Source: an uncultured virus (IMG/VR IMGVR_UViG_3300035698_034156) (lineage: Duplodnaviria > Heunggongvirae > Uroviricota > Caudoviricetes). Taken from it: DNA of 64,000 nt. The DNA lies in the IMG/VR virus record IMGVR_UViG_3300035698_034156; one strand, written 5' to 3'. Shown here in pieces: positions 8,812-30,121 of this stretch. The notes beneath the pieces are model-generated. The model worked only from the letters and a program-made list of their open reading frames with translations, made no database searches and had not been told where the DNA came from. The stretch's first letter is position 1, and the number at the start of each line of letters is the position of its first letter. The position numbers were made by a program, and so were the translations under genes.

Positions 8812-8822
8812 CTATAACTTCC

Positions 8823-9038: not shown

Positions 9039-9040
9039 TT

Positions 9041-9345: not shown

Positions 9346-9471
9346 TCATTCCATCACTAAGAAAGGTTTTTCTTCTGTAAAATATCTTTTACATTTAGGA
9401 CACTGTTTTGGTTTTTCCTTTCTTGGGTGCCATTCATATTCACAAAAAGGACACTTTAGTTCTGTTGTCAT
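9346..9471 (-). CDS. zinc-ribbon microprotein (41 aa)
   Basis: Manual translation MTTELKCPFCEYEWHPRKEKPKQCPKCKRYF...; CxxC-W-x-PR-CPxC type; purine-rich SD-like GGTGAAAGGA upstream. Confidence 0.75.
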   Translation of the reverse strand: MTTELKCPFCEYEWHPRKEKPKQCPKCKRYFTEEKPFLVME

Positions 9472-9480
9472 TCCTTTCAC

Positions 9481-10224: not shown

Positions 10225-10233
10225 TATGACTCA

Positions 10234-10262
10234 CCTCCTGTTTCAATATAATAATAATATTA
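10234..10262 (-). promoter_or_regulatory. conserved leader/RBS shared with 34351-34379
   Basis: TAATATTATTATTATATTGAAACAGGAGG, 26/29 identical to the copy upstream of the glutamine amidotransferase gene. Confidence 0.55.
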
Positions 10263-10272
10263 ATATCTCCTT

Positions 10273-12505: not shown

Positions 12506-12711
12506 AAATAATAACCTCCTATTGAAATTTCAGGATATTTACATAATGGTATATGGGACACTATATATTCAGCTTCTTTTTCTGCGCATGGTAAACATAT
12601 TTGTTTTAGTGCCTTTCTTTCCATCACTTTTTTTAATCCTTCATCATTTCTAACTGTAGTACCAATTAAAACAAATAATATCATAGTTTTTATTATTACT
12701 TTTGTTTCCAA
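12487..12711 (-). CDS. small hypothetical protein with CxxC
   Basis: ICLPC; fills the gap between operon genes. Confidence 0.45.
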   Translation of the reverse strand: METKVIIKTMILFVLIGTTVRNDEGLKKVMERKALKQICLPCAEKEAEYIVSHIPLCKYPEISIGGYYLCKSKN

Positions 12712-13961: not shown

Positions 13962-14638
13962 TTAATACATTTTTTGAAATTATCCAAAAATTCTTGAATG
14001 GTATCATCAGTTTTTTGATGATTTATTAGTGTATCGAAAAATTGATATGGAATCGTGATAACATCAGGATTAAGTGTAAACATTGCATTTATTTGTCCAA
14101 ATGTTCTAATACTTCCCACTATCACTTTTGTTTCATAATAGTTTCTATTATACACTTTCATTATGTCTTTTAGTGTATTCCAAGGATTAATTCCTATATC
14201 CCCTGCACGTGAATAGAAAAAACTTCCATATGTTGCTCCTGATAACGCAACTGTTACCATTTGATTTAATGTCATACATCCTGTAATATTTGTTTTTGCT
14301 CCTTGGTTCTCTTTCCATAATCGAGATTGTGCTAATAATCCTATTTTAGAAGCTGGAAGTTTTATTACAGCGTTTTCTCCCCACGATGATATTTCTACAG
14401 CTTGTTTAACCATTTCATCTAAGTTATTTGTGGTTACTTCAATGCTTACATCTCCATTAACTGTTTTAAGCACTTTTTTCATATGTTCTTTAAAATATTC
14501 CATATTCTGTACATTTTCCTCGTTTCTTGACATGTCTTTATAGAATATTTTAGGGTTTGTTGTGCAACCACTGATTATTCCTAAATTGTTCAATTCTTCT
14601 AATTGTTTCAAATCCGATGTATCGGCGAATATTTCCAT
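13958..14638 (-). CDS. tal: transaldolase (short TalC/Fsa type)
   Basis: IFADTSD, GCTTNP, VSIEV, VIKLP (Schiff-base Lys), TNIT, VGSIR, ITIP. Confidence 0.9.
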   Translation of the reverse strand: MEIFADTSDLKQLEELNNLGIISGCTTNPKIFYKDMSRNEENVQNMEYFKEHMKKVLKTVNGDVSIEVTTNNLDEMVKQAVEISSWGENAVIKLPASKIGLLAQSRLWKENQGAKTNITGCMTLNQMVTVALSGATYGSFFYSRAGDIGINPWNTLKDIMKVYNRNYYETKVIVGSIRTFGQINAMFTLNPDVITIPYQFFDTLINHQKTDDTIQEFLDNFKKCIK

Positions 14639-14639
14639 C

Positions 14640-15092
14640 TCAATTACCTCCTTTTATCGCGTTAACGCTTAACTCTAATCTGTTTTTCATTACTTTTTTT
14701 ATTGCATTAGCATTACCTTGAACATCTCGTTTCTTAACTAAATATCCATTATATCCATCTATAATCGTTTCCTCTGCGCCTGTTTCAGCAGAACCAATAC
14801 AAGGAACTCCGAAACTCATTGCTTCAGGATAAATCAACCCAAAACTTTCATACACGGATGGAACACATAACACATCAGCTTTTTGATATTGTTCTGATAA
14901 TTTTTCTTTCGTCACCCAACCATGTAATTCCAAATTTTTAACTTTCTTTATCCTTTCAATATCCTTTTTATCCATTAAACCTACCACTACAAGTTTTACA
15001 TTGGATGGAAGTAATTTCATTGCTTCAGATAAATACCATAATCCTTTAATCCACCCTGAATTCCCAACCCATAAAACTCTGAATTCTTTCAC
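14640..15092 (-). CDS. glycosyltransferase family 4, C-terminal domain only
   Basis: KGL...PSVYESFGLIYPEAMSFGVPCI; 150 aa, no acceptor-binding domain. Confidence 0.75.
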   Translation of the reverse strand: MKEFRVLWVGNSGWIKGLWYLSEAMKLLPSNVKLVVVGLMDKKDIERIKKVKNLELHGWVTKEKLSEQYQKADVLCVPSVYESFGLIYPEAMSFGVPCIGSAETGAEETIIDGYNGYLVKKRDVQGNANAIKKVMKNRLELSVNAIKGGN

Positions 15093-15680
15093 TTATAAAT
15101 CTCCTCGGATGGCAAATGCAATGTAGTGACTAAGAATTACGTGTAATGATTCTATTACTGGCACACTTTCCATCTTTTCTATTGGAACTAAGCAAATATC
15201 GGATTTTTCCATTACTTGTCCTCCTGTAAAACCAGAGAACCCTATTGTCGTAGCTCCTTGTTCTTTAGCATAATTTATTGCTTTAATCAAGTTGTTACTC
15301 CAGTTTGTTTCGCATCCATGTGCACTGAAAACAACTAAAACATCTCCTTCTGTTATTCTTTTTCTCAATTGGTTCACGTATGCATAATCCCATCCATCGT
15401 CATTTGTGTGAGCTGTTAACAAAGCAGTGTTATCGTTCAAACAGACAACTCTAAATCGTTTTTTATCTTCTCTATCAGATGTTTTCATTAGGTCTGCCGC
15501 AAAATGAGAAGCTGTTGAAGAACTTCCACCGTTCCCAACCATATACACTCTTTTACCTTTGTCTCGAGCTAATTCAAGAATTTCTATAACTTTATGTAAA
15601 TCATCCTTATCTATATTTATCATAGCTTTATGTATGTTAGAAAAATAATCTCCAACAGACATATCATATTCTCCAATCAT
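15093..15680 (-). CDS. gmhA: phosphoheptose isomerase (SIS domain)
   Basis: VGNGGSSSTASHFAAD, TAHTND, EGDVLVVFS, SGFTGG, IESLHVILSH. Confidence 0.92.
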   Translation of the reverse strand: MIGEYDMSVGDYFSNIHKAMINIDKDDLHKVIEILELARDKGKRVYMVGNGGSSSTASHFAADLMKTSDREDKKRFRVVCLNDNTALLTAHTNDDGWDYAYVNQLRKRITEGDVLVVFSAHGCETNWSNNLIKAINYAKEQGATTIGFSGFTGGQVMEKSDICLVPIEKMESVPVIESLHVILSHYIAFAIRGDL

Positions 15681-15994
15681 TTAAATTCCTCCTCTTTTTC
15701 TACTATTTTCATGTTTCCATTACACCAACCTTCTTGAAAATCTTTTTCTAAAGGTTCGTTTGTTTCAACTTTTTCAGCAAACTCTTTCACATCTTCCCAA
15801 TTCATATTATTCTGTGCCCAATCAAAAAGGTCATAATAATCCCCATCTACTGGATTCAAAGCCAAAGAATATTCTTCTGATTCAATATCTTTACCTTCTC
15901 TTTTACCATAATGTTCAGCTCTACTTTTTGCAATAATCTTAGCAGGAACATCCCACTTATCCCCATTAACCATCTCAACTCTAATAAACTTCAT
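15677..15994 (-). CDS. virus-like hypothetical protein
   Basis: DWAQNNMNWEDV motif of a kind seen in phage hypotheticals (recall); coupled by 4-bp overlaps. Confidence 0.6.
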   Translation of the reverse strand: MKFIRVEMVNGDKWDVPAKIIAKSRAEHYGKREGKDIESEEYSLALNPVDGDYYDLFDWAQNNMNWEDVKEFAEKVETNEPLEKDFQEGWCNGNMKIVEKEEEFK

Positions 15995-17055
15995 TCAACC
16001 ACCTTCAATAATATATCTTCTTTTTCTTTATCCCATAACAAATCCGTTTTTTTCATTTCCAGTTTAAATTTTTCTTCATATCCTTTTTCATAAAATTCAT
16101 TAATAGCTTCAGATAAAGCAAAAGAACTATGTGATGGTTTCAACAAACCATTAACTCTATTTTCTATTAAATCAGAATTCCCACCAACATCAGTAGTTAT
16201 AATCGGCGTATTAAACGCAAACGCATTATGAATTATACCTGACTGAGTTGATGAAAGATACGGTAAAACAACAGCATCACATGCACAAAACCATTGCATC
16301 ATTTCTTCATCATTAACATATTTATTGTGAACCATTATTTTATCACTGCTTATTTTTGTTTCTAATTCTTCCCACCATTCTCCCACAATATATAAATTCA
16401 CATCTTTACCAACATCTTTCATAGCTTTAACTAAATAATCCAATCCTTTATATGGTCTGACAAATCCAAAGAAAAGTAAAAATGGCTTTGTTATTCCTAA
16501 CATTTTTTGCGCTTCTTTTTTACTTATAGATTTTTTTATTACATTATACTGTGAATCTATCATAAATGATACTTCTTTTTTTGGAAAATTTTCTTTCGCC
16601 ATTTTTTCATCTGATTTTGCTAATGTTATTAATTTATCTGCTTGGTTCAAAAAAAGTTTTGTCATTATTTCATTAAACATATTTTTTTCGTGTGGAAAAA
16701 CATTATGACATAAAACATGTTTTTTACAATGAATCAATTTTGAAATTGTCCAATAACACGGTGTTAGAAATGTTGTCCACCAAACAAATATTACTACATC
16801 TGAATTAAATTCGTTAATTTCTTTAGCTGTTTTTATCCAACTCAACGGATTAACAGTATTTAATATAAATTTAGTATTATGCAGCGGTTTTTTGTTTTCT
16901 TTTTGAAACTTACCTTTGTAAAGGAAACTTGGATACAAATAAGAAAATGAAATGACTTTTACATCATGGTCAGATAAATTTTTGCACATAGTTGTAGCTG
17001 AATGAGATATCCCACCCCGAAAAGGAGTAACTGGAGCTATTATTATCACTTTCAT
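15991..17055 (-). CDS. glycosyltransferase family 4
   Basis: Start ATG 17055 (MKVIIIAPVTPFRGGISH), FFGFVRPYKGL, VVLPYLSSTQSG, PIITTDVGG. Confidence 0.92.
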   Translation of the reverse strand: MKVIIIAPVTPFRGGISHSATTMCKNLSDHDVKVISFSYLYPSFLYKGKFQKENKKPLHNTKFILNTVNPLSWIKTAKEINEFNSDVVIFVWWTTFLTPCYWTISKLIHCKKHVLCHNVFPHEKNMFNEIMTKLFLNQADKLITLAKSDEKMAKENFPKKEVSFMIDSQYNVIKKSISKKEAQKMLGITKPFLLFFGFVRPYKGLDYLVKAMKDVGKDVNLYIVGEWWEELETKISSDKIMVHNKYVNDEEMMQWFCACDAVVLPYLSSTQSGIIHNAFAFNTPIITTDVGGNSDLIENRVNGLLKPSHSSFALSEAINEFYEKGYEEKFKLEMKKTDLLWDKEKEDILLKVVE

Positions 17056-17186
17056 ACTTGTTCCCAATAATGTTGGTCTTCTATTTCTTCTGCGCATTTT
17101 AAACAAATTAATTTTCCTTTATACATTAATGCATCTCCTTCAGTTCTTCCGCATAATTCACATCTTTTTCCGTTTTCAAAATTCAA
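17052..17186 (-). CDS. zinc-finger microprotein (44 aa)
   Basis: Manual translation MNFENGKRCELCGRTEGDALMYKGKLICLKCAEEIE...; 4-bp stop/start overlaps on both sides. Confidence 0.7.
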   Translation of the reverse strand: MNFENGKRCELCGRTEGDALMYKGKLICLKCAEEIEDQHYWEQV

Positions 17187-18160
17187 CAATCTAATTCCCC
17201 CAAAATCTTTGCTCCTTCAAAATCAAAATTAAAAGACATTTCTTTCAGTCCTAATTCACACATTGATTCTCTTAAACTAAACTTGTTTTTCTCATCACAA
17301 TAAAACATCATAAACCCACCGCCACCAGAACCAACTAATTTTCCTCCAACAGCACCATTCTCTATTCCTGTTTTGTAAACTAAATCTATTTTTTCGTTTG
17401 ACATATTTTTAGATATGTTTCGCTTATTTTTCCAATGAATACTCATTGTTTTAGCAAAATCTTCTAACATTCCATTCGTAAGAAATAACAAAGAATCATT
17501 GTATATGTCTTGAATAGTATCCATTTCAATTGTTTTTCCATCTATAACTTTTTGTTGCTGTTCACCTAATATCTCTTTAGATTTATGAGTATATCCTAAA
17601 AAGAATAACATTAAATTGGATTCCAACTCTTTTGTTCTTTCTTCTTCTATTGGTAAATGTTTAATCCAAACATTACCATCTTGATTAACGTGAAAATTTC
17701 TGATTCCTCCGAACACTGATATAAATGGGTCCTGTTTCCCACCATTCGCTTTTCTTTCTATTTCAAACGCTTCTTCCGCCAGTTCATATTTAGTTTTTTT
17801 AATTCCTAAGTGATAATGCACAGCATTTAGTAAAGCAACCGTAAAACTTCCACTGCTTCCTAATCCTGTACCTGCTCCAACATCTGCTATTGATGTTATT
17901 TCTATTGAATTACCTAAATCATATGTTTCAAGGACTTCTCTAAATATTCTATGTTCTATTTGACTAGGATTATCAACTATTTCTGTTTTCGAATATTTTA
18001 ATTTAATTTTATTTTCAATTGAACGGTCATGTAAAATAATATACATGTATCTGTCAATCGCGGCTGAAATCCATGAACCAGAAAATCTTTCATAGTATGC
18101 AGGTAAATCTGTTCCTCCTCCACCTAAACTTATTCTTAATGGTGCGCGACTAATAATCAT
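17183..18160 (-). CDS. hddA: D-glycero-alpha-D-manno-heptose 7-phosphate kinase (GHMP family)
   Basis: RAPLRISLGGGGTDL, GTGLGSSG, GGKQD, GGKLVGSGGGGF. Confidence 0.92.
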   Translation of the reverse strand: MIISRAPLRISLGGGGTDLPAYYERFSGSWISAAIDRYMYIILHDRSIENKIKLKYSKTEIVDNPSQIEHRIFREVLETYDLGNSIEITSIADVGAGTGLGSSGSFTVALLNAVHYHLGIKKTKYELAEEAFEIERKANGGKQDPFISVFGGIRNFHVNQDGNVWIKHLPIEEERTKELESNLMLFFLGYTHKSKEILGEQQQKVIDGKTIEMDTIQDIYNDSLLFLTNGMLEDFAKTMSIHWKNKRNISKNMSNEKIDLVYKTGIENGAVGGKLVGSGGGGFMMFYCDEKNKFSLRESMCELGLKEMSFNFDFEGAKILGELDC

Positions 18161-18345
18161 TCATAATTACCCTCTTCTTGTTTTCTTAAATAATCATCAA
18201 GCCAAAAATAAAACCATATTATAAAAACCCAAAATGCTGTTATCCCAATAAACGCTGAAAAAAACGATAATATTGAACTAGATAAAAAACTTGCTGACAT
18301 AAATAATATCGCAATCAATCCTATTGCAAACATAAATAATTTCAT
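18157..18345 (-). CDS. small two-TM membrane protein
   Basis: Hydrophobic, ATGA-coupled. Confidence 0.6.
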   Translation of the reverse strand: MKLFMFAIGLIAILFMSASFLSSSILSFFSAFIGITAFWVFIIWFYFWLDDYLRKQEEGNYE

Positions 18346-19598
18346 ATTTTTAACTCCTTTAAACTCGATATTATCAGGGACGGTTTTGATGTAATTTTTT
18401 TATTTGCTGACCATCTTGTATTTTTATCCGTTAAATTATATCCTGTTTTAACTCCTATCGGAGTTACTCCAACTGATTGTCCTGCTATCATGTCCATATT
18501 CATATCTCCCACTATAAACGAAGCAGAAAGATTAATTCCCATTTCTTTTTGTGCTTTTAATATCATTCCTGGTTCTGGTTTTCTGCAATCACATATAATT
18601 TTGAATTCAGGATTTTCTTCTGGAAATCCTTTATCAGGATGGTGTGGGCAATAATATATTCTGTCAATGTATGCTCCGTGTTTTCCAAGTTCTGTTTCTA
18701 ATTTTTTATGAACTTTTTCAAGTTCTTTTATGGTTGTTTCATTTTTTGCTATACCTGGCTGATTTGTTATCATTACAACTAAATATTTTGAATTATTTAT
18801 TTCTTTTATTTTATTAATTGCTCCATCTATAAATTTCAGTTGATTCGGTTTTATAGTTGTTATTGTTTTTATAATTGTGCCATCTCTATCAAGGAAAAAA
18901 GCTTTATTTTTTGTTTTTATATCTATTATTTTAGCTTTGCGTAGTCTTTTTGGTGTTCCTATATCCATTATGAATTCGTGTGTATTGTACGCGTACACTT
19001 TATGTGATTTTATTACATTTGGTAAAATATCTTGTGCAAAATCACTTTTTCCTTTTGATATCATTTTAAAAATTTCTGGTTTAAGAATGTATATACTAGC
19101 ATTTGACAAATTTCTATAATTTGTTTTTAAATTATGTGGATGTGGGTAAATTTTTGTTATTAAATCATTTTTTGTTTCTATTAAATCTGAATCTTCCATA
19201 TGTATCGTTGGATGAACCACAATAGTTGCTATTCCGTTTTTTTCATTATGATATTTTATTAACTTTTTGAAATCGAAGTCAATAAGTTTATCTCCGTATA
19301 TCACAATAAAATCTTTATCTAATAATGGTTCTACATCTTTAAGCGCTCCTGCTGTTCCTTTCGGTTCTGTTTCTTTCCCAATTAATACACCAAAACACTT
19401 TATTTTTTCTAAATATTTAACAATTTTTTCGTGTCCATAATGAGTTAGAATTATTATATCGTTTATTTTTATTCCTGAATCCGATAAAAGTTTTATTTGT
19501 CTTTCAAGAATAGTTTTACCTTGTATATTTAACAGACACTTTGGTTTATTTCCATTCATTCTAGTTCCTTTTCCTCCTGCTAAAATTACGACTTTCAT
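18342..19598 (-). CDS. hddC-gmhB: fused heptose-1-phosphate nucleotidyltransferase (HddC-like) and heptose bisphosphate phosphatase (GmhB, HAD IIIA)
   Basis: VILAGGKGTRM..PK, GTAG, DIGTP; then FLDRDGT, TNQPGIA, CPHHP..CDCRKPEPGM, VGD. Confidence 0.9.
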   Translation of the reverse strand: MKVVILAGGKGTRMNGNKPKCLLNIQGKTILERQIKLLSDSGIKINDIIILTHYGHEKIVKYLEKIKCFGVLIGKETEPKGTAGALKDVEPLLDKDFIVIYGDKLIDFDFKKLIKYHNEKNGIATIVVHPTIHMEDSDLIETKNDLITKIYPHPHNLKTNYRNLSNASIYILKPEIFKMISKGKSDFAQDILPNVIKSHKVYAYNTHEFIMDIGTPKRLRKAKIIDIKTKNKAFFLDRDGTIIKTITTIKPNQLKFIDGAINKIKEINNSKYLVVMITNQPGIAKNETTIKELEKVHKKLETELGKHGAYIDRIYYCPHHPDKGFPEENPEFKIICDCRKPEPGMILKAQKEMGINLSASFIVGDMNMDMIAGQSVGVTPIGVKTGYNLTDKNTRWSANKKITSKPSLIISSLKELKI

Positions 19599-19789
19599 TT
19601 CATTTCCCTCAATATCTTTTTTTCTTCAAAAATTAAATGCGATAAATCAATTGGATGACAAGATTCCATTTGGCTAATCCACTCACGCCTTTTATCCAAA
19701 TTATCATAACACTCCAAACAAATTGGATGTTTCATTGAACCTTCCACTTTAGATGTGCCTTTTCCACACGTTACACAAATAAAACTCAT
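19595..19789 (-). CDS. small zinc-finger protein
   Basis: CVTC...CLEC. Confidence 0.6.
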   Translation of the reverse strand: MSFICVTCGKGTSKVEGSMKHPICLECYDNLDKRREWISQMESCHPIDLSHLIFEEKKILREMK

Positions 19790-20037
19790 TTAATCACCTT
19801 TTTATTTTTTACTTTAAGTTCGTGTAAAATATTTCTCCATTTCCACGCTGGATAATCATGTTTTTTTAATTTAACTTTATTATGTTTTTTTTTCATTTTC
19901 TCGTAAAAACTTTTTGCTTTTGTATCTGAAAAAAAACTAACTGACCTAGTTTTTTCATTTTTATGATAAATATTAACCGTCCAATGTGTATGTCTTTTTC
20001 CTTCTCCATGTGTATTAGGCATTTTTATCCCTGGCAT
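19786..20037 (-). CDS. small basic hypothetical protein
   Basis: Coupled ORF. Confidence 0.5.
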   Translation of the reverse strand: MPGIKMPNTHGEGKRHTHWTVNIYHKNEKTRSVSFFSDTKAKSFYEKMKKKHNKVKLKKHDYPAWKWRNILHELKVKNKKVIK

Positions 20038-21463
20038 ATATTTTCAAATGGTGAGGTTTTTCTGTTTCAAAAACCGTAACCAATTCTTTTGTATTAAGTA
20101 AATCCTGCATCCATTGTCTTTCTTTGTTAGTTATAGTTTCCTGTCTTAAACTATTACTGTCTTTCCTGTTAGAATAAAGTATTTCCAAATAGTATGTGTT
20201 CTCATCAATAAAATCACTTAAATCCACTTTATCAGCAATGTCGTGTTCTGGTTTAACATTCAAAAACCTTCTATTCCCAGTTATTCCTTGTAGGAAATAC
20301 ATACAATCGTCGCTTGAACCGATAACAAGAGAACCATCAGGAATATTATCATTTATTTGTTGTAAAACAGTGTATCTATCTGAAATAAACTGATAATGAA
20401 CTATCGAAGCTACTGTCATTATAACTAAAAGAAGCGAAATGCACAAATAGAAATTTTTCACGCTAATTCTTTTACTTATAAAATAAGCATAAGGAATTAT
20501 AAATAACCCAATTAAAGGAATGAAATACCTTAATCTTGCCGTAAACAACAATGGTATTGAATTATCAACCGCACTAATAAAAGTATTACTTGAAAGATAC
20601 AAAAAGTAAGGTATCAAAAATGCGAACTCTAAAAACATTGGTGATATTGTATCTTTCTTTTTTGGTATTTTACCATAAAATATTGATAAAAGCATCCAAG
20701 GATAAGAAATCAAAAAAATACCTAAAATAAATAAAAGATTTGAACCATCTATTGTTCTACTAACAATTACATTTGTTGCACTACCATATCCTGTATTCAA
20801 TGGATTTCCATAAACCATAGTATTAAACGATAATAAAATTGTCATCATTAAAAAAATACCTAATAATATTCCAACTAATTTTGCTGGTTCTTTTTTAATC
20901 AACGGAACTGCCATGAATGGTAAAAGTGCTAATACCGCATCATATCTCACAAAAACTGATATTCCAAACATTATTCCTGCAAAAAACCAATCTTTTCTGT
21001 TTTCTCCAAGATAAAAATACACTCCAGCTAATAACGCTGTTAAAACTAAAGGTGATGCGTAAAGAGTTCTTGAACTCCAAATCATTGCTGGATAAAACAA
21101 TAACAACAATGAATACCTATAATGAATACTTAATCGTTTAAAAACTAAAATTAATATAAACACATTCAATATATGAATAATCAATCCTGTTGCCATCATC
21201 CATTCTAATCCTAAAAATGTAAACGGAATCATAAAAATGGAGCGACCAATAAACTGTGGAGCAATATAACCATTATCTGTGTACGCCCCTGAACGACACG
21301 CTTTAGTTGTATCCTGTTCAAACAATGTTCCCTTTGACATTAACACTGAATTTTTAGCATACGAATGTTCATCAATCGAAGAATAAAAATTAGGAAACAA
21401 CGCCAATGTTATACCAATAAAAATAATGATAAATGATAAAAAAAGGCATTTTTCATTTATCAT
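20015..21463 (-). CDS. GT-C glycosyltransferase (PMT/ArnT-like)
   Basis: SIDEHSY acidic dyad in first loop, multiple TMs, VFVRY, YGNPLNTGY, RYFIPLI. Confidence 0.8.
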   Translation of the reverse strand: MINEKCLFLSFIIIFIGITLALFPNFYSSIDEHSYAKNSVLMSKGTLFEQDTTKACRSGAYTDNGYIAPQFIGRSIFMIPFTFLGLEWMMATGLIIHILNVFILILVFKRLSIHYRYSLLLLFYPAMIWSSRTLYASPLVLTALLAGVYFYLGENRKDWFFAGIMFGISVFVRYDAVLALLPFMAVPLIKKEPAKLVGILLGIFLMMTILLSFNTMVYGNPLNTGYGSATNVIVSRTIDGSNLLFILGIFLISYPWMLLSIFYGKIPKKKDTISPMFLEFAFLIPYFLYLSSNTFISAVDNSIPLLFTARLRYFIPLIGLFIIPYAYFISKRISVKNFYLCISLLLVIMTVASIVHYQFISDRYTVLQQINDNIPDGSLVIGSSDDCMYFLQGITGNRRFLNVKPEHDIADKVDLSDFIDENTYYLEILYSNRKDSNSLRQETITNKERQWMQDLLNTKELVTVFETEKPHHLKIYARDKNA

Positions 21464-22470
21464 AATACTTCCTCAGATAATTTTTGAAACCTTTTACGAA
21501 AAGTTTCTAAAGAGTATTTTGAATTCGCCATATATTTTGATTCTTGTGATACTCTTTTCCTGAACGGTTTATTTGAAATAAGTTTTTCTAAATTTGATGA
21601 TGTTTGTTCAATTAAATCATTTCTTTGCTCTATTTTATATGTATCATCAAATGAACTATTTTTTGTATAAGCAAGTAAACCTGCTTTTTCCACAACCTCA
21701 TCAATCGGTTTTATATCTAATGCAACAATCGGCAAACCATGACTCATTGCCTCTAAAAATACATACCCATAACTTTCCCATCTTGTTGGCATACAATAAA
21801 TATCATTTTCATTGTATAATTCATGTAACTGTTCATATGATAAATTTTCAGTTATTATATTCACATTATCTTTTTTATACAACCATTCATACTGTGTTCC
21901 TTTCAAACTAAACCATTGTGGAAACTTAAAAGTATATTCTACATCATAATTTTCAATTTTATTAATTGAATCAGCTAAAATATCAGCACCTTTCTTATAA
22001 AAATTATTAGCTATAAACAACACTTTTGTTAATTCTCTATCATTTTTAACAACATTATGATTTCGAACTCCTTGTGGCATATAATACAAATTATCTTCAT
22101 TCCCCATTACACTCATAACATCATTATACGCCCACGCCGTATTGAATATTACAGCGTTCATATTATTCACTGTTGGAACAATTTCTTTGTTTCTCTCAGT
22201 AAAATATGATAAACTTTCAATATCACCAATTTTAGATGCTCCTCGAGCAAAAATTAGGTTTGGAAACTCACAATTATTACAATACAGCAAATTACATTTT
22301 CTTACTGTTAATTCAGCTTTAATTCTATTTCTAGCCCAATTCTGAATAATATAAGAATCCCAAGGCGGATTGTTTAACATAAAGTTTTCCTCGTATTGAG
22401 GATGATATCTTGATAAACAAAGACTTATAGTTTTTTCTTTATTTCTTCCAGTGTTTTCTTCGTTCCCCAT
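21460..22470 (-). CDS. glycosyltransferase family 4
   Basis: KKGAD, MPTRWESYGYVFLEAMSHGLPIV. Confidence 0.88.
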   Translation of the reverse strand: MGNEENTGRNKEKTISLCLSRYHPQYEENFMLNNPPWDSYIIQNWARNRIKAELTVRKCNLLYCNNCEFPNLIFARGASKIGDIESLSYFTERNKEIVPTVNNMNAVIFNTAWAYNDVMSVMGNEDNLYYMPQGVRNHNVVKNDRELTKVLFIANNFYKKGADILADSINKIENYDVEYTFKFPQWFSLKGTQYEWLYKKDNVNIITENLSYEQLHELYNENDIYCMPTRWESYGYVFLEAMSHGLPIVALDIKPIDEVVEKAGLLAYTKNSSFDDTYKIEQRNDLIEQTSSNLEKLISNKPFRKRVSQESKYMANSKYSLETFRKRFQKLSEEVL

Positions 22471-22724
22471 ACATTCTCCACCATGTCCAGTAAATATCTT
22501 TTATGTGGTACAACCCAGTCTTTTGTAAAACCTATTAACCTGTCGTCACCAATTTTTTTTAGTACTTCCGTATGTTTGCTTCTTTCAAGAGAATGTGAAA
22601 TATGTTTCCAGCAATAATCCGCTAAATCATTTTGATACAGCATTTTTTTCTCGTCAATTATTACAGTTTTCTCTTTGAAAAAATCATTCATCGGAGATAT
22701 TGATTTTCTACCTCTTGAAACCAT
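22425..22724 (-). CDS. hypothetical protein
   Basis: ORF in operon order. Confidence 0.5.
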   Translation of the reverse strand: MVSRGRKSISPMNDFFKEKTVIIDEKKMLYQNDLADYCWKHISHSLERSKHTEVLKKIGDDRLIGFTKDWVVPHKRYLLDMVENVWGTKKTLEEIKKKL

Positions 22725-23037
22725 CTTTTCCTACCTCCATTTTTCTTTCTTTTTCTTTTCTTTCTTTTTCTTTTCTTTCTTTTTTTGTTTCAATCCAAAT
22801 ATTTCTAATTGATAAAAAGAATGTAAACACAAATGATAATGGTAATACAATTGAATTCAGGCTTAAAGTGTACGGTAACATTATGATTGAAGAAACAAGT
22901 GTTAGTATCCAGAACAATTTAGGAGTAACACTTCTTCCTTCTTTTTCGGATTGATACCATTGAACACCCCATCGAAGGAATAAGAAAAAGTAACCTACTC
23001 CTCCAACAACTTCCCAGAACCAGTCAACCATTAACAA
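22708..23037 (-). CDS. LAB_N-like (lipid A biosynthesis N-terminal domain, PQ-loop/SWEET-like) small membrane protein
   Basis: FLRWGVQWYQSEKEGRSVTPKLFWILTL...Y..RNI. Confidence 0.8.
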   Translation of the reverse strand: MLMVDWFWEVVGGVGYFFLFLRWGVQWYQSEKEGRSVTPKLFWILTLVSSIIMLPYTLSLNSIVLPLSFVFTFFLSIRNIWIETKKERKEKERKEKERKMEVGKDGFKR

Positions 23038-24113
23038 GCTCCTCCTGTTGGTTCAACATCACTTGTAATTTCTGTATTACATTCTTCTGGTGCTGTTGTG
23101 AACGAAGAGCAAACAAGGTTTTTGATTCCTTGTGGTGTTCTGTCAAATTCTGCTCCAAATGAAACTCCGTTTATTACAAGAGAAGGAGATACTGTTAATC
23201 CTAATGCTGTCGCATCATCTTTTTCAGATTGATAAAGTTCTTCCCCTGATTCTTGACAACTGAGTAGTACTTTATCTACATCTATTCCAGTTGTTCCCAT
23301 TAATTTAACAGATTCATTTTCATTACACTCTGTTGTTCTAACATTAGAACAATTTGTGTAAACTGTTTCAAGATATTGGTCTGCGTAATCCCAGTAATTG
23401 TCGTAGTCTTCTAATTGGATGCATTCCTGTAACATATTTTGTTGTTTTTCATATTCTCCATGCATATTACTGAAAAATTTCACTTTAAAGTTAGCTGTGT
23501 CTTTCATCAGTTTTCCTACTTTAGCAAATGAATCAAGAGATGAAGAACCTGCTGGGCAATAAGAAAATACATACAATTCTATATCTGGTATTTCCTGTTG
23601 TTTAAGTTCTATGGTTGTTGGTTCTGGAACTGGTTCTGGGTCCTGTGTAAAGTCTAAAATGTTTTGTTCCCAAATCATATATTTTCCGTCTTTTGTAAGG
23701 AACCATTTTCCGCTATTTTCTCCAACACTTAAAGTAAACCCTGTTAAGTAATCATTAAATTCTGTGATTTCAGAAACAGTGGATTCTTCCCCTGAAACAG
23801 TCGTTGCAAAGTTTTCAATGGTTTCTTTGATTGCGTCAGTGAATTCCACTTGTGGTTCACATTCATTTTCGCCACATACTGGACAATTATCATATGGTAT
23901 ATACGAAGATGATGGTTCTGTTATGAACGGAGTTATTAGTATAATTCCTAAAACCCCTAAACAAATACCTGCTAAAGCTACAGCAAGCATTTTCGTTGTA
24001 TTATTTGTTTTTGGTTTTTTTTCTTCAATTGTTTCTTCAATTGTTTCTTCAATTATTTCTTCAATTGGTTTTGGTTTTTCAATTATTTCTTTTTCTGGTT
24101 CGTTTTCTTCCAT
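23031..24113 (-). CDS. membrane-anchored thioredoxin/DsbA-like protein
   Basis: TM anchor, FLTKDGKY, IELYVFSYCPAG, MHGEYE, SPSLVING, LVCSSF..APEEC; family typical of DPANN archaea (recall). Confidence 0.8.
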   Translation of the reverse strand: MEENEPEKEIIEKPKPIEEIIEETIEETIEEKKPKTNNTTKMLAVALAGICLGVLGIILITPFITEPSSSYIPYDNCPVCGENECEPQVEFTDAIKETIENFATTVSGEESTVSEITEFNDYLTGFTLSVGENSGKWFLTKDGKYMIWEQNILDFTQDPEPVPEPTTIELKQQEIPDIELYVFSYCPAGSSSLDSFAKVGKLMKDTANFKVKFFSNMHGEYEKQQNMLQECIQLEDYDNYWDYADQYLETVYTNCSNVRTTECNENESVKLMGTTGIDVDKVLLSCQESGEELYQSEKDDATALGLTVSPSLVINGVSFGAEFDRTPQGIKNLVCSSFTTAPEECNTEITSDVEPTGGAC

Positions 24114-24196
24114 TAATATTCCTCCTAAATTTTTTAAATGTTAAATGAAGATTTTTGGGACCGATAAAATAGATAGCACAGGAGGTACCATTTTAC

Positions 24197-24823
24197 TTAA
24201 TCGGTTGACCCAATCTCCATTAAGTATTCTTTTATTAGCTCTCCAGCTTCTTCCATTGTATCAATATACATATGTCTAAGGTTGTTTTTATAAGACACAC
24301 GCTTTTGTTTGATTATTTCACCTTTATCGAACTCATCTGTTATCATATGAATCGTTACACCTGAATCATTTTTATCATCAAAAGCCCGTTTAATCGGATT
24401 CCAACCCCTGTAATTCGGTAACAACGATGGATGAACATTCACAGCGTGCTTAAACCTTCGGCAATAATCACTCTCAATCTTTTTATCCCATCCAAACGAT
24501 AATAATACATCGCCACCACCATAATTTTCATTAGATACAACTGCCTTCCAACTCCATTCTCTCACAACATCTTCCACAGTTCTTTGCTGTTTTAACCAAA
24601 TGAATTTTTTAAACGATAACCAGAACCCATTCTTTTTAAGCGCCTTAAGTTTTCTGGTTTTCCAATCCGCAACTTTAACAATAAATTCAACATCTTCCAC
24701 TTCAAACAATTTATCCAAAGCCCTATCCATTCCAACCAAACCATTAGTAGTTAACAAAACAACTTTGAATTTCTTACGACTAAAATCGTATGATTCTTGC
24801 TTCAAGGGTTGTCCTTTCGTCAT
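24197..24823 (-). CDS. formyltransferase (N10-formyl-THF dependent, probably sugar N-formyltransferase); N-terminal ~20 residues derive from the IS right end
   Basis: NVHPSLLPNYRGWNP, SGVTIHMITDEFDKGEII. Confidence 0.85.
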   Translation of the reverse strand: MTKGQPLKQESYDFSRKKFKVVLLTTNGLVGMDRALDKLFEVEDVEFIVKVADWKTRKLKALKKNGFWLSFKKFIWLKQQRTVEDVVREWSWKAVVSNENYGGGDVLLSFGWDKKIESDYCRRFKHAVNVHPSLLPNYRGWNPIKRAFDDKNDSGVTIHMITDEFDKGEIIKQKRVSYKNNLRHMYIDTMEEAGELIKEYLMEIGSTD

Positions 24824-24900
24824 TCAAATCCCTCTACGAACAAATGGTGATTCTCCACCATAGGATGCAAACAAACATTCTTACGCACATTCTGTCGAAA
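24765..24900 (-). ncRNA. putative omegaRNA/reRNA scaffold (5' boundary approximate); guide would continue AGTTGTTTTGTTAACTAC
   Basis: Position overlapping the tnpB 3' end and the right-end hairpin, as established for TnpB systems. Confidence 0.5.
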
Positions 24901-26008
24901 AATATTTATTGCTCCATTTACATCTCTATCCTGCCGATACCCACAAGAACAAGAATAATCCCTATCAAATGGTTTATTCTTTCTCTCACAAACAGGACAA
25001 AGTTGCGTTGTATATCTTTCATCAACTCTTTCAAATTGAATTCCTTTTTCATCACACTTATTAGCCAATCTTTTATAAAGCAAATCAAATGACCAAAGGT
25101 TGTGCGTCAATTGATTCGCTTTTTTGTTTTTGAATGACTTTGCAAGTATACCTTTCACATCTCCAACAACTACTTTGCTTGGATTCGCATCTGTAATAGC
25201 CCATGACACGATGTTTTTGTAGTAGTTATCAACCATTTTCTTTCTTTTTTCATAAATCACTTGGATTTGTTTTGTTGTCCATCTGTGATTTCTTGTTTTC
25301 GATATCTTTTGCAGTCGTTTTATTTTCGATGTTAGTTTCTTCCATTTTTTGATTATTGGGCTTGAATAAATCCACGCTTTTTCCCCGTTAAAACTAACTA
25401 TTCCTCTCTTTACTCCGATATCAATTGCAATTACATTATTTCCTTTCCTTTGCTTTGGGTCTTTAACTTTGATTAATTGATGTAAATAAAATTTTTTGTT
25501 AATTTTGTTATAATGCACTTCTGCTGTTCCTTGTTTTCCTTCCCATTTCATTTTTCCCTTGTATTGAAGAATAATTCCCTTAAGTTTAGTTTCTTTTCGC
25601 ATTTGCCTTGACAATGGCATAATCACATTATCATTTTTGAAATAGTATTGTGCGGCATCCATTCGAAGCATACTTGGTATTGTTGTTTTTGTTTTTCTGT
25701 TCTTATAATATTTTGGTAGTCCAACTTTTTTTTGTGTTTTTGACTTTATTAATCCAAAGAATCCATTTACAATAAACGAATACTTTTGTAACATAGGTAA
25801 TGCATAACTTCTTCCAAGTTTCTGATAATCTTTTGATGTTTGAATTACTTTTTGTTGCTGAAAAAATGATTTAACTTTCTCTTTTTTAAAAATTGATTGC
25901 CTAAAGTCATAATTCGCCATATTCCAAACACATGACGATAAAGTCATCATTTCTAACAACATTTTTTTTTGTTGCTTATTGGTAACCAACTCAACTACAT
26001 TTATTCTA
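24765..26008 (-). mobile_element. solo-tnpB IS200/IS605-family (IS1341-like) element inserted after ATGAA
   Basis: Right end AGAATCATACGATTTTAGTCGTAAGAAATTCAA with hairpin 24775-24790 and terminal TCAA. Removing 24765-26008 rejoins SD+ATG AAA GTT GTT TTG. Confidence 0.75.
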
Positions 26009-26013
26009 TTCAT
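24820..26013 (-). CDS. tnpB: RNA-guided endonuclease TnpB
   Basis: RuvC-I IAIDIGV, RuvC-II VVVGDV, ERYTTQLCPVC..CSC zinc finger, RuvC-III DRDVNGAINI. Confidence 0.95.
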   Translation of the reverse strand: MNRINVVELVTNKQQKKMLLEMMTLSSCVWNMANYDFRQSIFKKEKVKSFFQQQKVIQTSKDYQKLGRSYALPMLQKYSFIVNGFFGLIKSKTQKKVGLPKYYKNRKTKTTIPSMLRMDAAQYYFKNDNVIMPLSRQMRKETKLKGIILQYKGKMKWEGKQGTAEVHYNKINKKFYLHQLIKVKDPKQRKGNNVIAIDIGVKRGIVSFNGEKAWIYSSPIIKKWKKLTSKIKRLQKISKTRNHRWTTKQIQVIYEKRKKMVDNYYKNIVSWAITDANPSKVVVGDVKGILAKSFKNKKANQLTHNLWSFDLLYKRLANKCDEKGIQFERVDERYTTQLCPVCERKNKPFDRDYSCSCGYRQDRDVNGAINIFRQNVRKNVCLHPMVENHHLFVEGFE

Positions 26014-26669
26014 TTAATCACTTCTTCTTTTTCTTCAATCTTCTTTTTTTGTTTCAATCCAAATAATAAAACTAACAAACATCACAAATAAACCTAAAAA
26101 TGCCCAAAAATAAGGATACCCACCAGACGATGTAACAACACAAACTCCGTCATTTCTACAATATTCACTTAAAGAACAAGGACAGTCCACAGCACAAGTT
26201 AAACAATTTTCACCTAAATGACGTTCACAAACACCATTAGAACAATATGTTATATCTTCTAAAACATCTACATTCAGTGTTGTTGAATCCGTTCCTAGTT
26301 CTCCACGAGCATTGAATGTAACACCTGAATTATCTTTTGTAGTAATTCCTCTAACCCTAAAAATAGTTGACTTAGATGCTCCTGGCGATATTCCTCTTAA
26401 AACTGTACTCGAAGGTGAAATATTAACATATGAATTTGCATTAACCCATAAATAAAAGTCATCATCCCCACTACCGACATTTTTAACTGTTATAGTAACA
26501 TTTCTTTCCTCGTTTCTTTTAACATCAATACTTTGAGGACTAACTAAAATTTCTGGTATTCCTCCACATTGTTCAAATACAAATGACGAAACTCCTGATA
26601 ACATAACTAACATAAGTAACCCAATCACTAACAAATTTATTTTTTTCATTTAATCACTTCTTCTTTTTC
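26009..26669. repeat. 25-bp exact direct repeat (26009-26033 and 26645-26669) containing SD and ATGAA
   Basis: TTCATTTAATCACTTCTTCTTTTTC occurs twice and flanks the 204-aa gene. Confidence 0.9.
26035..26649 (-). CDS. secreted Ig-like (CARDB/NEW3-like) protein with Cys-rich segment and C-terminal TM
   Basis: Signal peptide, VTITVKNVGSGDD, CSNGVCE..GENCLTCAVDC, TM. Confidence 0.75.
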   Translation of the reverse strand: MKKINLLVIGLLMLVMLSGVSSFVFEQCGGIPEILVSPQSIDVKRNEERNVTITVKNVGSGDDDFYLWVNANSYVNISPSSTVLRGISPGASKSTIFRVRGITTKDNSGVTFNARGELGTDSTTLNVDVLEDITYCSNGVCERHLGENCLTCAVDCPCSLSEYCRNDGVCVVTSSGGYPYFWAFLGLFVMFVSFIIWIETKKED

Positions 26670-27440
26670 CTCTTTTTTAAACAATTTTCCTATTTTTTTA
26701 TTAAACCATTTACTACAAAATACAATACCAATTACTACACCTAAAATCATTGAAAACCAAAAAATCCACATACTCATAAATTCGTAATTTGAACATTCTT
26801 CACATTCTGATTCAGGTTCATTTTCTAATTCATTTATTTTATTTTGTAAAACACCCATTTTTTCTCTTAAAGATTGTAAATAATCATCATATTCTTTCAA
26901 TATTAATTCGTATTGTTTATTGTTTGCTTCACATTCTTGCTTATGATTTAAACAACTTTGATTTATTAATATTAAATTATTAATATCGCAATTATCACAA
27001 TTCCCATCCAAAAATCCATCAATAACATTATCATCTATCACATCATCCAACGGATGAAAAGGAACTCTATACGTAAAAGACCTTCCGCCACCACTGCTAA
27101 CTGGAACATCTGTTGAAGCTGTTAATATAATCTTGTACGGATTCGGTGCAACATCCACTCTTGTTGTCAAAGTCATTATTACGTTTTGCCTTTCCCCAGG
27201 TTTTAAAACAAATTGTTGTGGTTGAAGTGAAACACTTAACCCTTCTCCGTTTGCTATGCTTGAACCCATTGAAACTATTGTATCGTTGGAGAAACCGACT
27301 CCGAACACTTCAATATTGTAACTTGTTTCTTCTCCCCCAAACAAAGTTAAATCGAAAGTTGTTGGGTTAATGACAAGCGATTGAGCCGAAACAGCACTGA
27401 TAAATAATAGTAAAAATATTAATACTAAACTTTTTCTCAT
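26646..27440 (-). CDS. secreted Ig-like plus coiled-coil protein with C-terminal TM
   Basis: Signal peptide, FVLKPGERQNV, SSGGG linker, coiled coil, TM. Confidence 0.7.
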   Translation of the reverse strand: MRKSLVLIFLLLFISAVSAQSLVINPTTFDLTLFGGEETSYNIEVFGVGFSNDTIVSMGSSIANGEGLSVSLQPQQFVLKPGERQNVIMTLTTRVDVAPNPYKIILTASTDVPVSSGGGRSFTYRVPFHPLDDVIDDNVIDGFLDGNCDNCDINNLILINQSCLNHKQECEANNKQYELILKEYDDYLQSLREKMGVLQNKINELENEPESECEECSNYEFMSMWIFWFSMILGVVIGIVFCSKWFNKKIGKLFKKEEKEEVIK

Positions 27441-27485
27441 CTCAATTACCTCCTAAAAAAAATAAAAAGGGGATTATCCCCAAAC

Positions 27486-28724
27486 TTAAACTGGGTTCAC
27501 CTCTGTTATGATGGTGTAATTATCTGGCTTCAATGCTACATCAAATGCTGTTTTGATGTAAAATTTATCCAATGCTTTACTTGGGATTGTTGATGTTCCC
27601 TTGATAGCATAACTAGCATTGACTGTTCCTGATGTATTAATTCCATCAGTATCCCACCAATTATTAGTTGCATCGAAAGATATTGCACCATAATCTTTCA
27701 CTGTGTCAAAACCTAAAAAGTTATTATGTTGAAGTGTTGCATTTCCATAACTTAAATCAGCTCCGATTGATTCTGCATTGTCGTGAAATGTGTTGAATTG
27801 CACATTAGCACCAGTAAACCCACCAACTCCTGCGGCTGTGTTGTAAATCTCGTTATATTTTACTGTAATACTTCCAATATGCGAGTTTGTGTATACTCCT
27901 GTTGAACTTGGATGGATTTTGTTATGTTCTATAAGAACATTGGTGTAATCTGATGATGGATTATTGGGTTGTGCTGAATATAATCCCAATATAATACCCT
28001 TTCCTGTTCCAGTTAAGTCGTTGTAAGATATGTCTATGTTACTTAATACAGGCATTAAATAGATGCTTGTTGTTTCTCCAAGAATAACACCAGGATTAAT
28101 TGTGAATCCTTGTATTGTAACATTATCTGCATTTACTTGAATTCCTCCTGTTATTATTGTTGTTCCTGAAATATTGCCAGTCGAAGCTAATGTTATACTT
28201 TTACCGATTGTCAATGTTTCGTTGTATGTTCCGTCATTTACACAAATAACATCTCCTGATGTTGCAGCAGTTATTGCAGATTGAATTCCACTACTGACAG
28301 TTGTAGTACAACTTGGTGCAGTGTAATCTGCGAAGTTAACTGTGCCTTCGTCAAAGTACTCATAGATTGTAGTTGTAATTCCACCACAATCAAATGTGTC
28401 TCCAGTACACTTTGTTACAAGGTCAACTGGAACATCAACATTCGCATGATTTTCTAGTTCATAGTCATCCCACGAAGTATCTCCTGCAAATACTGCTCCA
28501 TCGTAACTAGCAGTCTTACTAACCAAATCGTCACTAAATGTTACTGATTGACTTACATTTGCTGTTGCTGTAATATTTACATAAGTCAACAGTACAGCCG
28601 CTGAAACTAAACCTGCAAACATCAATACTGCCAGTACTGATAGTATCTTTTTCTTTTTTGAAAAAGAAGGTTTCTTTTCAACAGAAGATTTCTTTTCAAT
28701 TATTTCTTTAATTTCCTCTTCCAT
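27486..28724 (-). CDS. exported right-handed parallel beta-helix protein
   Basis: IQSAITAATSGDVICVNDGTYNETLTI, NVTIQGFTI, DATNNWW. Confidence 0.8.
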   Translation of the reverse strand: MEEEIKEIIEKKSSVEKKPSFSKKKKILSVLAVLMFAGLVSAAVLLTYVNITATANVSQSVTFSDDLVSKTASYDGAVFAGDTSWDDYELENHANVDVPVDLVTKCTGDTFDCGGITTTIYEYFDEGTVNFADYTAPSCTTTVSSGIQSAITAATSGDVICVNDGTYNETLTIGKSITLASTGNISGTTIITGGIQVNADNVTIQGFTINPGVILGETTSIYLMPVLSNIDISYNDLTGTGKGIILGLYSAQPNNPSSDYTNVLIEHNKIHPSSTGVYTNSHIGSITVKYNEIYNTAAGVGGFTGANVQFNTFHDNAESIGADLSYGNATLQHNNFLGFDTVKDYGAISFDATNNWWDTDGINTSGTVNASYAIKGTSTIPSKALDKFYIKTAFDVALKPDNYTIITEVNPV

Positions 28725-28776
28725 TTATTTCACTTCCTTATTTTTTTCTCGGCGAACAACGCCAAAAATATAAATT

Positions 28777-28971
28777 CTATTTTTTCTCGTCTATTTTAGT
28801 TTTATAATTGGGTTTATACTCTTTCCTTTCATCGAACTCTTGTTTCTTACCTTTATTCCAGTTCTTAACTGGTCTATAATACCCAACAACCCGTGAATAT
28901 ACTTCGCATTCAAGATTACATTTCTTTGTTTCGTTTTTCTTTGTTTCATTTTTTTCAGGCATTAAATTCAC
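28777..28971 (-). CDS. stand-alone NrdD C-terminal glycyl-radical-domain protein
   Basis: CEVYSRVVGYYRPVKNWNKGKKQEFDER. Confidence 0.85.
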   Translation of the reverse strand: MNLMPEKNETKKNETKKCNLECEVYSRVVGYYRPVKNWNKGKKQEFDERKEYKPNYKTKIDEKK

Positions 28972-29194
28972 TTTCCTCGTCTCTTTCCTTCCTCGTTCCT
29001 CGTCTCTTCAAAATAACAACATCCCAAGACATAAGAATAATAGTTACAACAATCAACCAAGAAAATATGCTTAATATAATTATCTGTAAAAAAGAACCAA
29101 GTGTTAAATCTTCATTTAAATGTCTAAAATACAAAAACAATAAAATCGCTGATAAAACATATCCAACGAACCAAACAACTAAAAACTCATTCAT
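28955..29194 (-). CDS. small two-TM membrane protein
   Basis: Two hydrophobic segments. Confidence 0.6.
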   Translation of the reverse strand: MNEFLVVWFVGYVLSAILLFLYFRHLNEDLTLGSFLQIIILSIFSWLIVVTIILMSWDVVILKRRGTRKERDEESEFNA

Positions 29195-30121
29195 TTAATC
29201 CACCCAACAATTCCTTGCATAAATACTACAATGATAAGAACTAATCTCACAATCAACTTCTACATTATCAGATATTCCAGCACAATCAAAGTCACGCCTA
29301 AAACCAGACACAACACCTTTACATTCATCAACAAAATGAGATTGACAATAGTCTTTTTTGAAAACAGTATTACAGTCTTCAATTTTATCAACCCAACCAA
29401 CAAAATCAATGTGCCACTTACCCCATTTCTCACATTCAATCACAGGCTCATCGTATTCAATCATTGGACAATTTCCAGTGTAACAATAATCATAGTATAT
29501 ATTTTTTATGTATCCGTCATAGCAACGACAAAATAACACATCACCATTGAAGTCCACTATCTCTCGAAACCCAACACATTCACTCGGCATATTATTTCTA
29601 CACCAAACATCAGCAGAAATCATAGGCTTTTCGGGTTCAATACAACAAAACTCTTTACAATTCGCCCTACAATTTTCAACTGTTTTTTCGCCATCGTAAC
29701 AAACAAGAGCCGCACAAAAATCAATACACGCCTCATTAAACTCACATTCAACCACAGGCTCTTCATCGGATTGAATTTCCTCGGTGGTGTAAGAAAAAGG
29801 AATTTCACAAAAGAAATTATTGGTCTCTTCATACTTTTTCTCTTTACCACCAAAAGACTCACACGCAGACCTAATATTAAAAGCACAAACTTCAAAAGAA
29901 GTTAAACTAGTTCCATCTTCTACTGTTTCAATATGAAAATGCCCACACTCAAAATCTTTTGCATTCTCTAATTCCTCTTGACACGCAGACAACTCTTCAT
30001 TTATTCCATGCTGTCCAATGTAACAACCAAGGATTATCCCACCAATCATTGCAAATAATATACCAAAATAAACATATTTAGCAGGATACATTTCTTTATT
30101 TTCATTTTTTTCCTTTCCCAT
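29195..30121 (-). CDS. membrane-anchored Cys-rich exported protein
   Basis: N-terminal TM, many cysteines. Confidence 0.7.
   Translation of the reverse strand: MGKEKNENKEMYPAKYVYFGILFAMIGGIILGCYIGQHGINEELSACQEELENAKDFECGHFHIETVEDGTSLTSFEVCAFNIRSACESFGGKEKKYEETNNFFCEIPFSYTTEEIQSDEEPVVECEFNEACIDFCAALVCYDGEKTVENCRANCKEFCCIEPEKPMISADVWCRNNMPSECVGFREIVDFNGDVLFCRCYDGYIKNIYYDYCYTGNCPMIEYDEPVIECEKWGKWHIDFVGWVDKIEDCNTVFKKDYCQSHFVDECKGVVSGFRRDFDCAGISDNVEVDCEISSYHCSIYARNCWVD

Follow-up and report, generated by a model that had tools for sequence, protein, structure and literature searches.

A tnpB element at the start codon of a formyltransferase gene, with a right end that continues in frame

How can a transposable element sit directly behind the start codon of a gene and leave that gene with an open reading frame (ORF)? 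This question is raised by a 64,000-nt stretch of DNA recorded as an uncultured virus of the Caudoviricetes (IMG/VR record IMGVR_UViG_3300035698_034156; the whole stretch is called the window below), in which a tnpB gene of the IS200/IS605 type interrupts a formyltransferase gene. That the element is inserted at the start codon and that its right end is in frame can be read directly from the sequence. As an explanation, we regard it as probable, from comparison with related sequences, that the element carries a built-in restart cassette maintained by selection, and that the window copy later lost its left end. In contrast, a type of element that has no left end, as proposed in a preliminary description of the locus, is not supported.

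The insertion, its target gene and its TnpB

The insert comprises 1244 bp (26008..24765, minus strand), lies directly 3' of an ATGAA motif, and consists of tnpB codons plus 55 nt. The tnpB ORF (26013..24820, minus strand) encodes 397 aa. Rejoining the flanks without the insert results in an open frame of 190 codons with the N-terminus MKVVLLTTNG; as read from the sequence, the insertion is in codon 2 of the formyltransferase gene. The junctions, the length and the open frames were re-read and are as the preliminary description had given them, and its proposal that tnpB uses the Shine-Dalgarno (SD) motif and the ATG of the target gene is supported. The window alone leaves the boundary open to a shift of 2 nt, since both junctions share AA, but the relatives of the element fix it; apart from this AA, there is no target duplication. 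The right junction is spanned with 0 differences by a contig of 296 nt that comes from a salt-lake run (and may stem from the window's own source sample), which rules out an assembly artefact at this junction, while no piece bridging the left junction was found among the metagenome contigs compared with the window.

The ATGAA motif by itself is weak proof because it is common in the window: there are 339 such sites, 21 of them starts, and 21 of the 67 ATG-started ORFs of at least 90 aa begin with it. The case for the insertion is carried by the natural start of the homologues and by the relatives of the element. Four close insert-free homologues of the formyltransferase (42–47% identity) align from the junction onward, with the N-termini MKILLLVSDG, MKVLLLVSNG and MILVLLVSNG, and one 5'-partial sequence. 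The start is present in three of the four, which bears out the earlier claim that the empty site is a natural formyltransferase start, and the element-derived tag is absent from all four; an insert-free homologue with the same N-terminal extension had been named in advance as the counter-evidence to look for. All 17 formyltransferase sequences compared share residues N129, H131 and D166. In an AlphaFold model of the tagged enzyme, the core is confident from the strand at residues 19–26 onward and the tag is loosely defined (pLDDT, the predicted local distance difference test, of 58 and 74 for residues 1–20, and 82–98 beyond). Restart at Met32 of the formyltransferase was considered and rejected, as the first strand would be lost. 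Three loci in metagenome contigs that were candidates for an empty allele proved to be chance matches, without a BLAST match to the window and with a different, 421-aa protein. No self-target (up to two mismatches in 12 nt) was found elsewhere in the window.

The tnpB product matches PF01385 (41.7 bits) and PF07282 (69.8 bits), both exceeding the cut-off, as well as PDB entry 8bf8 (E = 3e-08). D198 and D364 are invariant. Gly284 occupies the canonical position of the RuvC-II glutamate, and E332 is shared by all 20 sequences. In the available text on RIIr TnpBs (PMC10691335), such a replacement by glycine, with a candidate substitute glutamate downstream, is described for proteins that are presumed active. 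The window TnpB likewise combines the glycine at RuvC-II with a downstream glutamate and shares the archaeal and viral distribution of these clades; the likeness is one of residue pattern, and the activity of the window TnpB is a prediction.

The nearest copies of the element, with 67–72% protein identity, are in a metagenome-assembled genome (MAG) of Iainarchaeum, two MAGs of the Iainarchaeum phylum, a Woesearchaeota MAG and an IMG/VR contig. Scans of viral sequences revealed nothing with single proteins, one close locus with alignments, one locus with each of the left-end patterns, and none with the right-end pattern. In two phylum searches, matches came from 3 of 215 genomes and from 1 of 401, none additional to the known relatives, and among phage records the best match had about 26% identity. 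The counts given below leave out L009 and L011–L013 (25–28%) and nine distant TnpBs of genome G002 (L019–L027), which belong to other families. Two near-identical TnpBs of the window family (P0001 and P0002) are each encoded on a 67,439-nt contig and are perhaps two copies in one replicon.

The right end in the window and in relatives

In the window, the TGA of tnpB overlaps an ATG at 24823, and the 59 nt from this ATG to the terminal TCAA are in frame and without stops. The in-frame handover, which had been proposed for the window copy, recurs in relatives. In five of five right ends, ATGA is present at the tnpB stop, with an SD-like motif just 5' of it (GAGGG, AGGTGA, GGGGA, GAGGG and GAGGTGA), and the distances from the ATG to the end (59, 59, 59, 62 and 47 nt) are all stop-free and all 2 modulo 3, the phase of ATGAA. 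The length of 62 nt, found in L007, involves indels of +2 and +1 that sum to 3 and keep the phase. In L004, the restart frame runs into a PfkB kinase, and this fusion has already been deposited as a protein (P0262). The right flank of L031 contains an in-frame ORF of at least 200 codons, and that of L030 an in-frame 16-residue tail that fits the open frame of L034. A search for other proteins with the right-end peptide, a weak test given the few words available, yielded four candidates, namely the L004 fusion and three plain PfkB kinases. In another homologue (P0014), the TnpB C-terminus continues into the right-end frame (ending in MGNGQEAHSL), and the overlap seems to have been lost.

The C-terminal tails of TnpB homologues were analyzed for their capacity to encode such a cassette, using the 82 of 91 homologues that have an intact RuvC-III motif near the end (the other nine were dropped, and P0092–P0093 omitted). 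An SD core followed by an ATG 4–11 nt further on is spellable in 75 of the 82 tails. In 100 shuffles, the mean is 29 and the maximum 38, and the combination can be spelled in 32 of 150 tails of unrelated proteins and in 63 of 410 windows from internal positions. For 24 tails, an ATG can be spelled when the tnpB frame is shifted, and hence the ATG persists when the tnpB stop moves. The last TnpB residue is one whose codons are unable to end in A in only 9 of the 82 tails, versus a background of 29%.

According to the parts of the IS608 account that are available (PMC3201880), the cleavage site of IS608 pairs with a guide of 4 nt located at the hairpin foot, guide base 1 with site base 2 and base 2 with base 1, while the third site base is unpaired; the guide and site sequences are those in the accessible part of PMC5934647, from which the fourth–fourth pair was deduced. 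GAAT is combined with TCAA in the window and in L008, and GAAG with TCAC in L004, L007 and L010, a compensatory change that fits the IS608 pairing prediction. The contigs of L007 and L008 end exactly at TCAC and TCAA, respectively. Because of the guide/site covariation and the contig breaks, the right end at 24765 is secure, and the identification of the insert as an IS200/IS605 tnpB element with GAAT, hairpin and a TCAA end stands. There is no tnpA beside the window tnpB. L008 contains what we take to be a tnpA-like frame, interrupted by an internal stop; the genome concerned (G618, with L008 and L030–L038) is a MAG labelled Rhodobacter, and its contigs of low G + C content with a tnpA-tnpB element are probably contamination.

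The right end also contains the predicted 3' part of the omegaRNA. In the predicted structure, 96% of the cells are paired and six pairs are changed on both sides, in the four sequences from which the structure itself was derived. The replacement ATG is unpaired in the consensus. Rfam gave no matches at E values up to 1 in 23500–27000, that is, no match to a known omegaRNA or group I intron. An IStron was therefore rejected as an identity for the window element, whose insert is tnpB plus 55 nt.

The left end and the target motif

In five of five relatives with a full 5' side (L004, L005, L006, L010 and L008), a left end with a hairpin and the guide CAAT at +13 to +16 is present, and the spacing between the motif and the ATG of tnpB is 62–206 nt in the four tnpB-only copies. 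A left subterminal hairpin with a guide is absent 5' of the window tnpB. Because of this failed left-end test, the window copy is classified as a truncated derivative, not as an intact member, and the lack of a non-coding left end cannot be upheld as the design of the element. The hairpin that had been offered as a left end inside the first tnpB codons (GTTG..TTGG-TTA-CCAA..CAAC) does exist, with −4.9 kcal/mol, a value equalled by 4 of 200 shuffles. L005, whose left end is a true one, shares the core of this hairpin, TTGGTTACCAA, at the same codons, and there is no CA.T guide 5' of the window hairpin, the sole CAAT lying inside its 3' arm. On these two grounds, it was rejected as a left end. 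L010 has the tnpB start AAGTGATAAAAATG of its own, compared with AAGTGATTAAATG in the window, and the homologue P0010 starts with MN; this resemblance would have provided the microhomology for a deletion of the left end. The left end of L004 (2294–2500) is three times as long as usual (206 nt); within it are an AT-rich stretch resembling a promoter and a short ORF on the reverse strand.

The sequence upstream of the insert belongs to the host gene region, because 26 nt that end in ATGAA are repeated at the previous gene boundary: the exact repeat (26670-26645 and 26034-26009, minus strand) comprises a gene end, the SD motif and ATGAA at two successive boundaries. The 204-aa gene at this repeat stops 22 nt early, and another frame reads KKIEEKEEVIK-stop as in the preceding gene; the early stop is probably due to a 1-nt slip in a run of A.

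From the left guide CAAT, a TG.A target is expected, and the observed motifs fit. The seven other left flanks have ATGAA (five cases: L004, L010, L034, L035 and L039), GTGAA (L006) or TTGAA (L005), thus DTGAA in seven of seven, with the motif in L004–L010 located by seeking TGAA, which was also part of the pattern that found L039. Independent evidence for the transposon-adjacent motif (TAM) comes from G618, in which two different left flanks share a sequence starting exactly at ATGAA. The TAM had been given as ATGAA, and this holds with TGAA as its core. Firm start codons are the sites in L004, where the motif overlaps an upstream stop, and in L035, where it follows an intergenic stretch; L006 is a probable start with a GTGA overlap, and L010 is ambiguous. 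Three of the seven sites are not starts (L005, mid-frame; L034, an internal Met-Lys; L039, a last codon), and thus the element targets a sequence and not start codons, which look enriched but are not required. L039 (about 2601–2643, minus strand) is a 47-bp mini-element, a hybrid of left and right end with one hairpin (CAAT guide, TCAA end). It follows an ATGAA motif where a viral gene has its last codon, and it lacks the ATG cassette.

Table 1. Features of the tnpB insertion and the interrupted formyltransferase gene in the window.
Feature	Position	Strand	Remarks
SD-like AGTGA of the target gene, putatively now serving tnpB	26018..26022	minus	within the 26-nt exact repeat
Target motif (TAM) ATGAA: former formyltransferase start codon + 2 nt, now tnpB start	26009..26013	minus	
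tnpB-only IS200/IS605 derivative, 1244 bp, without the family's non-coding left end	24765..26008	minus	
tnpB, 397 aa, rearranged RuvC-II type	24820..26013	minus	D198, G284, E332, D364, C4 zinc finger
Small hairpin in first tnpB codons, probably incidental	25971..25990	minus	
Predicted 3' part of omegaRNA scaffold	24765..24861	minus	stems covarying in four sequences
SD-like GAGGG in last tnpB codons, 6 nt 5' of new ATG	24830..24834	minus	also pairs, as 5' arm, with 24808-24804 (covarying stem)
ATGA, replacement start codon overlapping tnpB stop	24820..24823	minus	in 5/5 right ends
Right guide GAAT at foot of right hairpin	24793..24796	minus	guide and end same as in IS608
Right-end subterminal hairpin	24773..24792	minus	weaker than that of L010: one A-A mismatch, one compensatory pair
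Right cleavage site TCAA	24765..24768	minus	guide covariation in relatives; contig ends of L007 and L008
Predicted omegaRNA guide = right flank = formyltransferase codons 2-8	24747..24764	minus	role suggested by TnpB biology; assumed length
Formyltransferase (PF00551), 208 aa: element-derived N-terminal tag + native core	24197..24823	minus	N129, H131, D166 intact

Most of the window is taken up by a region for glycan synthesis and surface proteins, in which the SD motifs look archaeal and a tRNA is absent. A long glycan cluster (1945-21463, minus strand) encodes glycosyltransferases, epimerases, methyltransferases, a SIS isomerase and a GHMP kinase, as well as a nucleotidyltransferase-phosphatase fusion and a transaldolase. 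On the plus strand are an 810-aa ORF that contains both an intein and a LAGLIDADG domain (39349-41781), 42-nt (14-residue) tandem repeats inside a 1269-aa ORF (54367-55962), and several degenerate families of surface-protein-like coding repeats with periods of about 150–160 and 250–280 nt (57424-64000).

Origin of the arrangement and comparison with known systems

The arrangement would be explained as follows. An archaea-associated IS200/IS605 tnpB family with the target (A/G/T)TGAA would have inserted 3' of the formyltransferase ATGAA by peel-and-paste, the route suggested by the biology of the family. The right end of the family would be a built-in restart cassette, with the SD motif in the last tnpB codons, the ATG over the tnpB stop and a stop-free run phased to ATGAA. 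A stem that hides an SD motif until ribosomes translating the upstream gene open it is ordinary translational coupling. Ribosomes completing tnpB would open the SD-hiding stem and re-initiate, yielding the host enzyme with a 19-residue tag, and such insertions would survive because the cassette works whenever the motif ATG is in frame. Later, the window copy would have lost its non-coding left end of about 60 nt, most simply by a deletion between the target SD-ATGAA and the similar SD-ATG of tnpB, which would have placed tnpB under host signals and made the element no longer excisable by TnpA. For other IS605 elements, cutting of the empty allele by TnpB is reported in the accessible parts of two studies (10.1101/2023.03.14.532601; 10.1101/2023.11.20.567912). 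Here, the TAM followed by the guide is the empty allele, and therefore TnpB, if active, would cut it, so that the left-end-less element may still be defended or spread. The earlier description of the element as start-codon-targeting and non-disruptive is retained as far as the in-frame restart recurs in relatives; it fails where the sites are not starts and where, as in L010, the flank is not rescued.

Several observations weigh against this explanation. The right ends fall into three length classes with few independent indels, and the shared phase would arise by chance with a probability between 1 in 9 and 1 in 27. Only four right flanks other than that of the window copy, which was excluded from these statistics, are available: three of the four are in frame (P of about 0.04) and two of the four have a long ORF (P = 0.14), while L010 meets a stop at once and is not rescued; the pairings L035-L031 and L034-L030 were deduced across a collapsed repeat. 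The three nearest PfkB homologues start with MYDV, whereas the empty site of L004 would give MKYDV. In the tail analysis, spellable does not mean spelled, and the 82 tail proteins are related and are not independent observations of DNA. Compared with the 21 starts among 339 ATGAA sites in the window, the firm starts are only two of seven (P = 0.065), or three of seven including L006 (P = 0.007). An empty allele of the window site was not found in the contigs of four runs over 21500-29500, for which coverage is patchy.

The SD-like arm itself leads to a different explanation. It pairs with a segment in the tag codons, and three of the five pairs are changed on both sides in the four close ends; because this stem covaries, the RNA structure also conserves the SD arm. 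The G-rich arm and ATGA might therefore be kept for omegaRNA folding, with the matching phase an inherited accident; restart may occur without being selected, and in-frame cases would be seen because other intragenic insertions have been purged. The sites that are not starts or not rescued (L005, L010, L034 and L039) and the small number of independent indels agree with such a by-product. However, the ATG is unpaired in the consensus and nevertheless present in five of five ends and spellable in shifted frames, the 5' arm remains SD-like despite the pair changes, the L007 indels total 3, and the last TnpB residue avoids amino acids unable to end in A. We therefore judge a by-product seen through survivor bias to be unlikely, although it deserves serious attention. 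The structural and the restart roles of the arm can also be compatible, in which case the stem would set folding of the guide against host translation.

Quite improbable, in our estimate, is that the formyltransferase is no longer usefully made, with guide processing cutting the first codons of its mRNA or the stem blocking the SD motif, and with a gene that has not yet decayed. The overlap of the guide with codons 2–8 would agree with lost expression, and in IStrons the omegaRNA structure represses the step that rescues the host gene, as stated in the accessible part of 10.1101/2023.11.20.567912. On the other hand, the frame and the catalytic residues are intact despite about 30% TnpB divergence from the nearest relatives and a drifted right hairpin, an argument that is weak because it depends on the age of the insertion. 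The original idea of a mobile type that has no non-coding left end, carries a hairpin inside the tnpB codons and always borrows SD and ATG from its target can be given hardly any credence. It would account for the missing left end of the window copy and for a hairpin better than 196 of 200 shuffles, but it is refuted for the family by the canonical left ends of the relatives, the hairpin core recurs in L005 without a CA.T guide 5' of the hairpin in the window, and no second left-end-less copy was found in the protein and DNA scans for relatives.

Beyond the window copy, the restart cassette can be extended to a clade-wide scenario, about which we are evenly divided. A target of ATG, GTG or TTG plus AA would have co-evolved with a right end that combines three roles, those of TnpA substrate, omegaRNA scaffold and restart cassette; ribosomes would open the SD-hiding stem, so that each transcript would serve either as guide RNA or for making the host protein, and loss of the left end would turn the element into a non-excisable, site-locked homing unit dependent on host-gene signals. 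Among titles and abstract openings of the mostly open-access IS605/TnpB literature that was searched, no description of a start-codon restart layout was found, and the phrase "start codon" is absent from the papers that were checked for it.

The available parts of the IS608 accounts (Helicobacter pylori; PMC3201880, PMC5934647) describe features shared with the window family: subterminal hairpins whose foot is preceded on the 5' side by a guide of 4 nt, insertion directly 3' of a short target that is not duplicated, an identical right GAAT/TCAA and, in the relatives, a left guide at a similar position (about +16). In contrast, the target is TTAC in IS608 and TGAA in the window family, the window copy lacks tnpA and the left end, and the SD motif, ATG and open frame in the right end are features of the window family that go unmentioned in the IS608 accounts consulted. 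The ISGst/ISDra2-type elements, as far as described in the accessible part of 10.1101/2023.03.14.532601, likewise combine tnpB with an overlapping right-end RNA, covarying TAM and transposon-encoded motifs and DNA guides, and use the flank as guide, from which cutting of the empty allele is expected, as it would be for the window element. They differ in their distant sequence, whereas the window TnpB has Gly in place of the RuvC-II Glu together with the invariant downstream Glu, and the target of the window family coincides with ATG, GTG or TTG plus AA and is accompanied by the restart cassette. The closest parallel in outcome, an intragenic insertion made harmless, is offered by the IStrons, IS605 or IS607 elements with a group I intron (PMC4227781; 10.1101/2023.11.20.567912, each in its available part). 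In these, too, one RNA end has competing duties, as the omegaRNA structure opposes splicing (10.1101/2023.11.20.567912). However, the window element has no intron by Rfam, its rescue would be re-initiation and would work only with the motif ATG in frame, and where IStrons restore the exact mRNA, the window family would add a tag of 15–20 residues.

If the restart reading is correct, IS200/IS605 elements would have a second route, besides splicing, to reside inside genes at low cost, and the identity of the TAM with a start codon plus two bases would be explained. One would then expect a class of proteins, P0262 among them, that are mis-annotated and carry N-terminal tags of transposon origin, and a conflict in which processing of the guide competes with translation of the host gene. 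If it cuts, a compact TnpB with a DTGAA motif might serve as a start-codon-targeting tool. Should the clade-wide scenario also be true, these elements would be the intron-free counterpart of IStrons.

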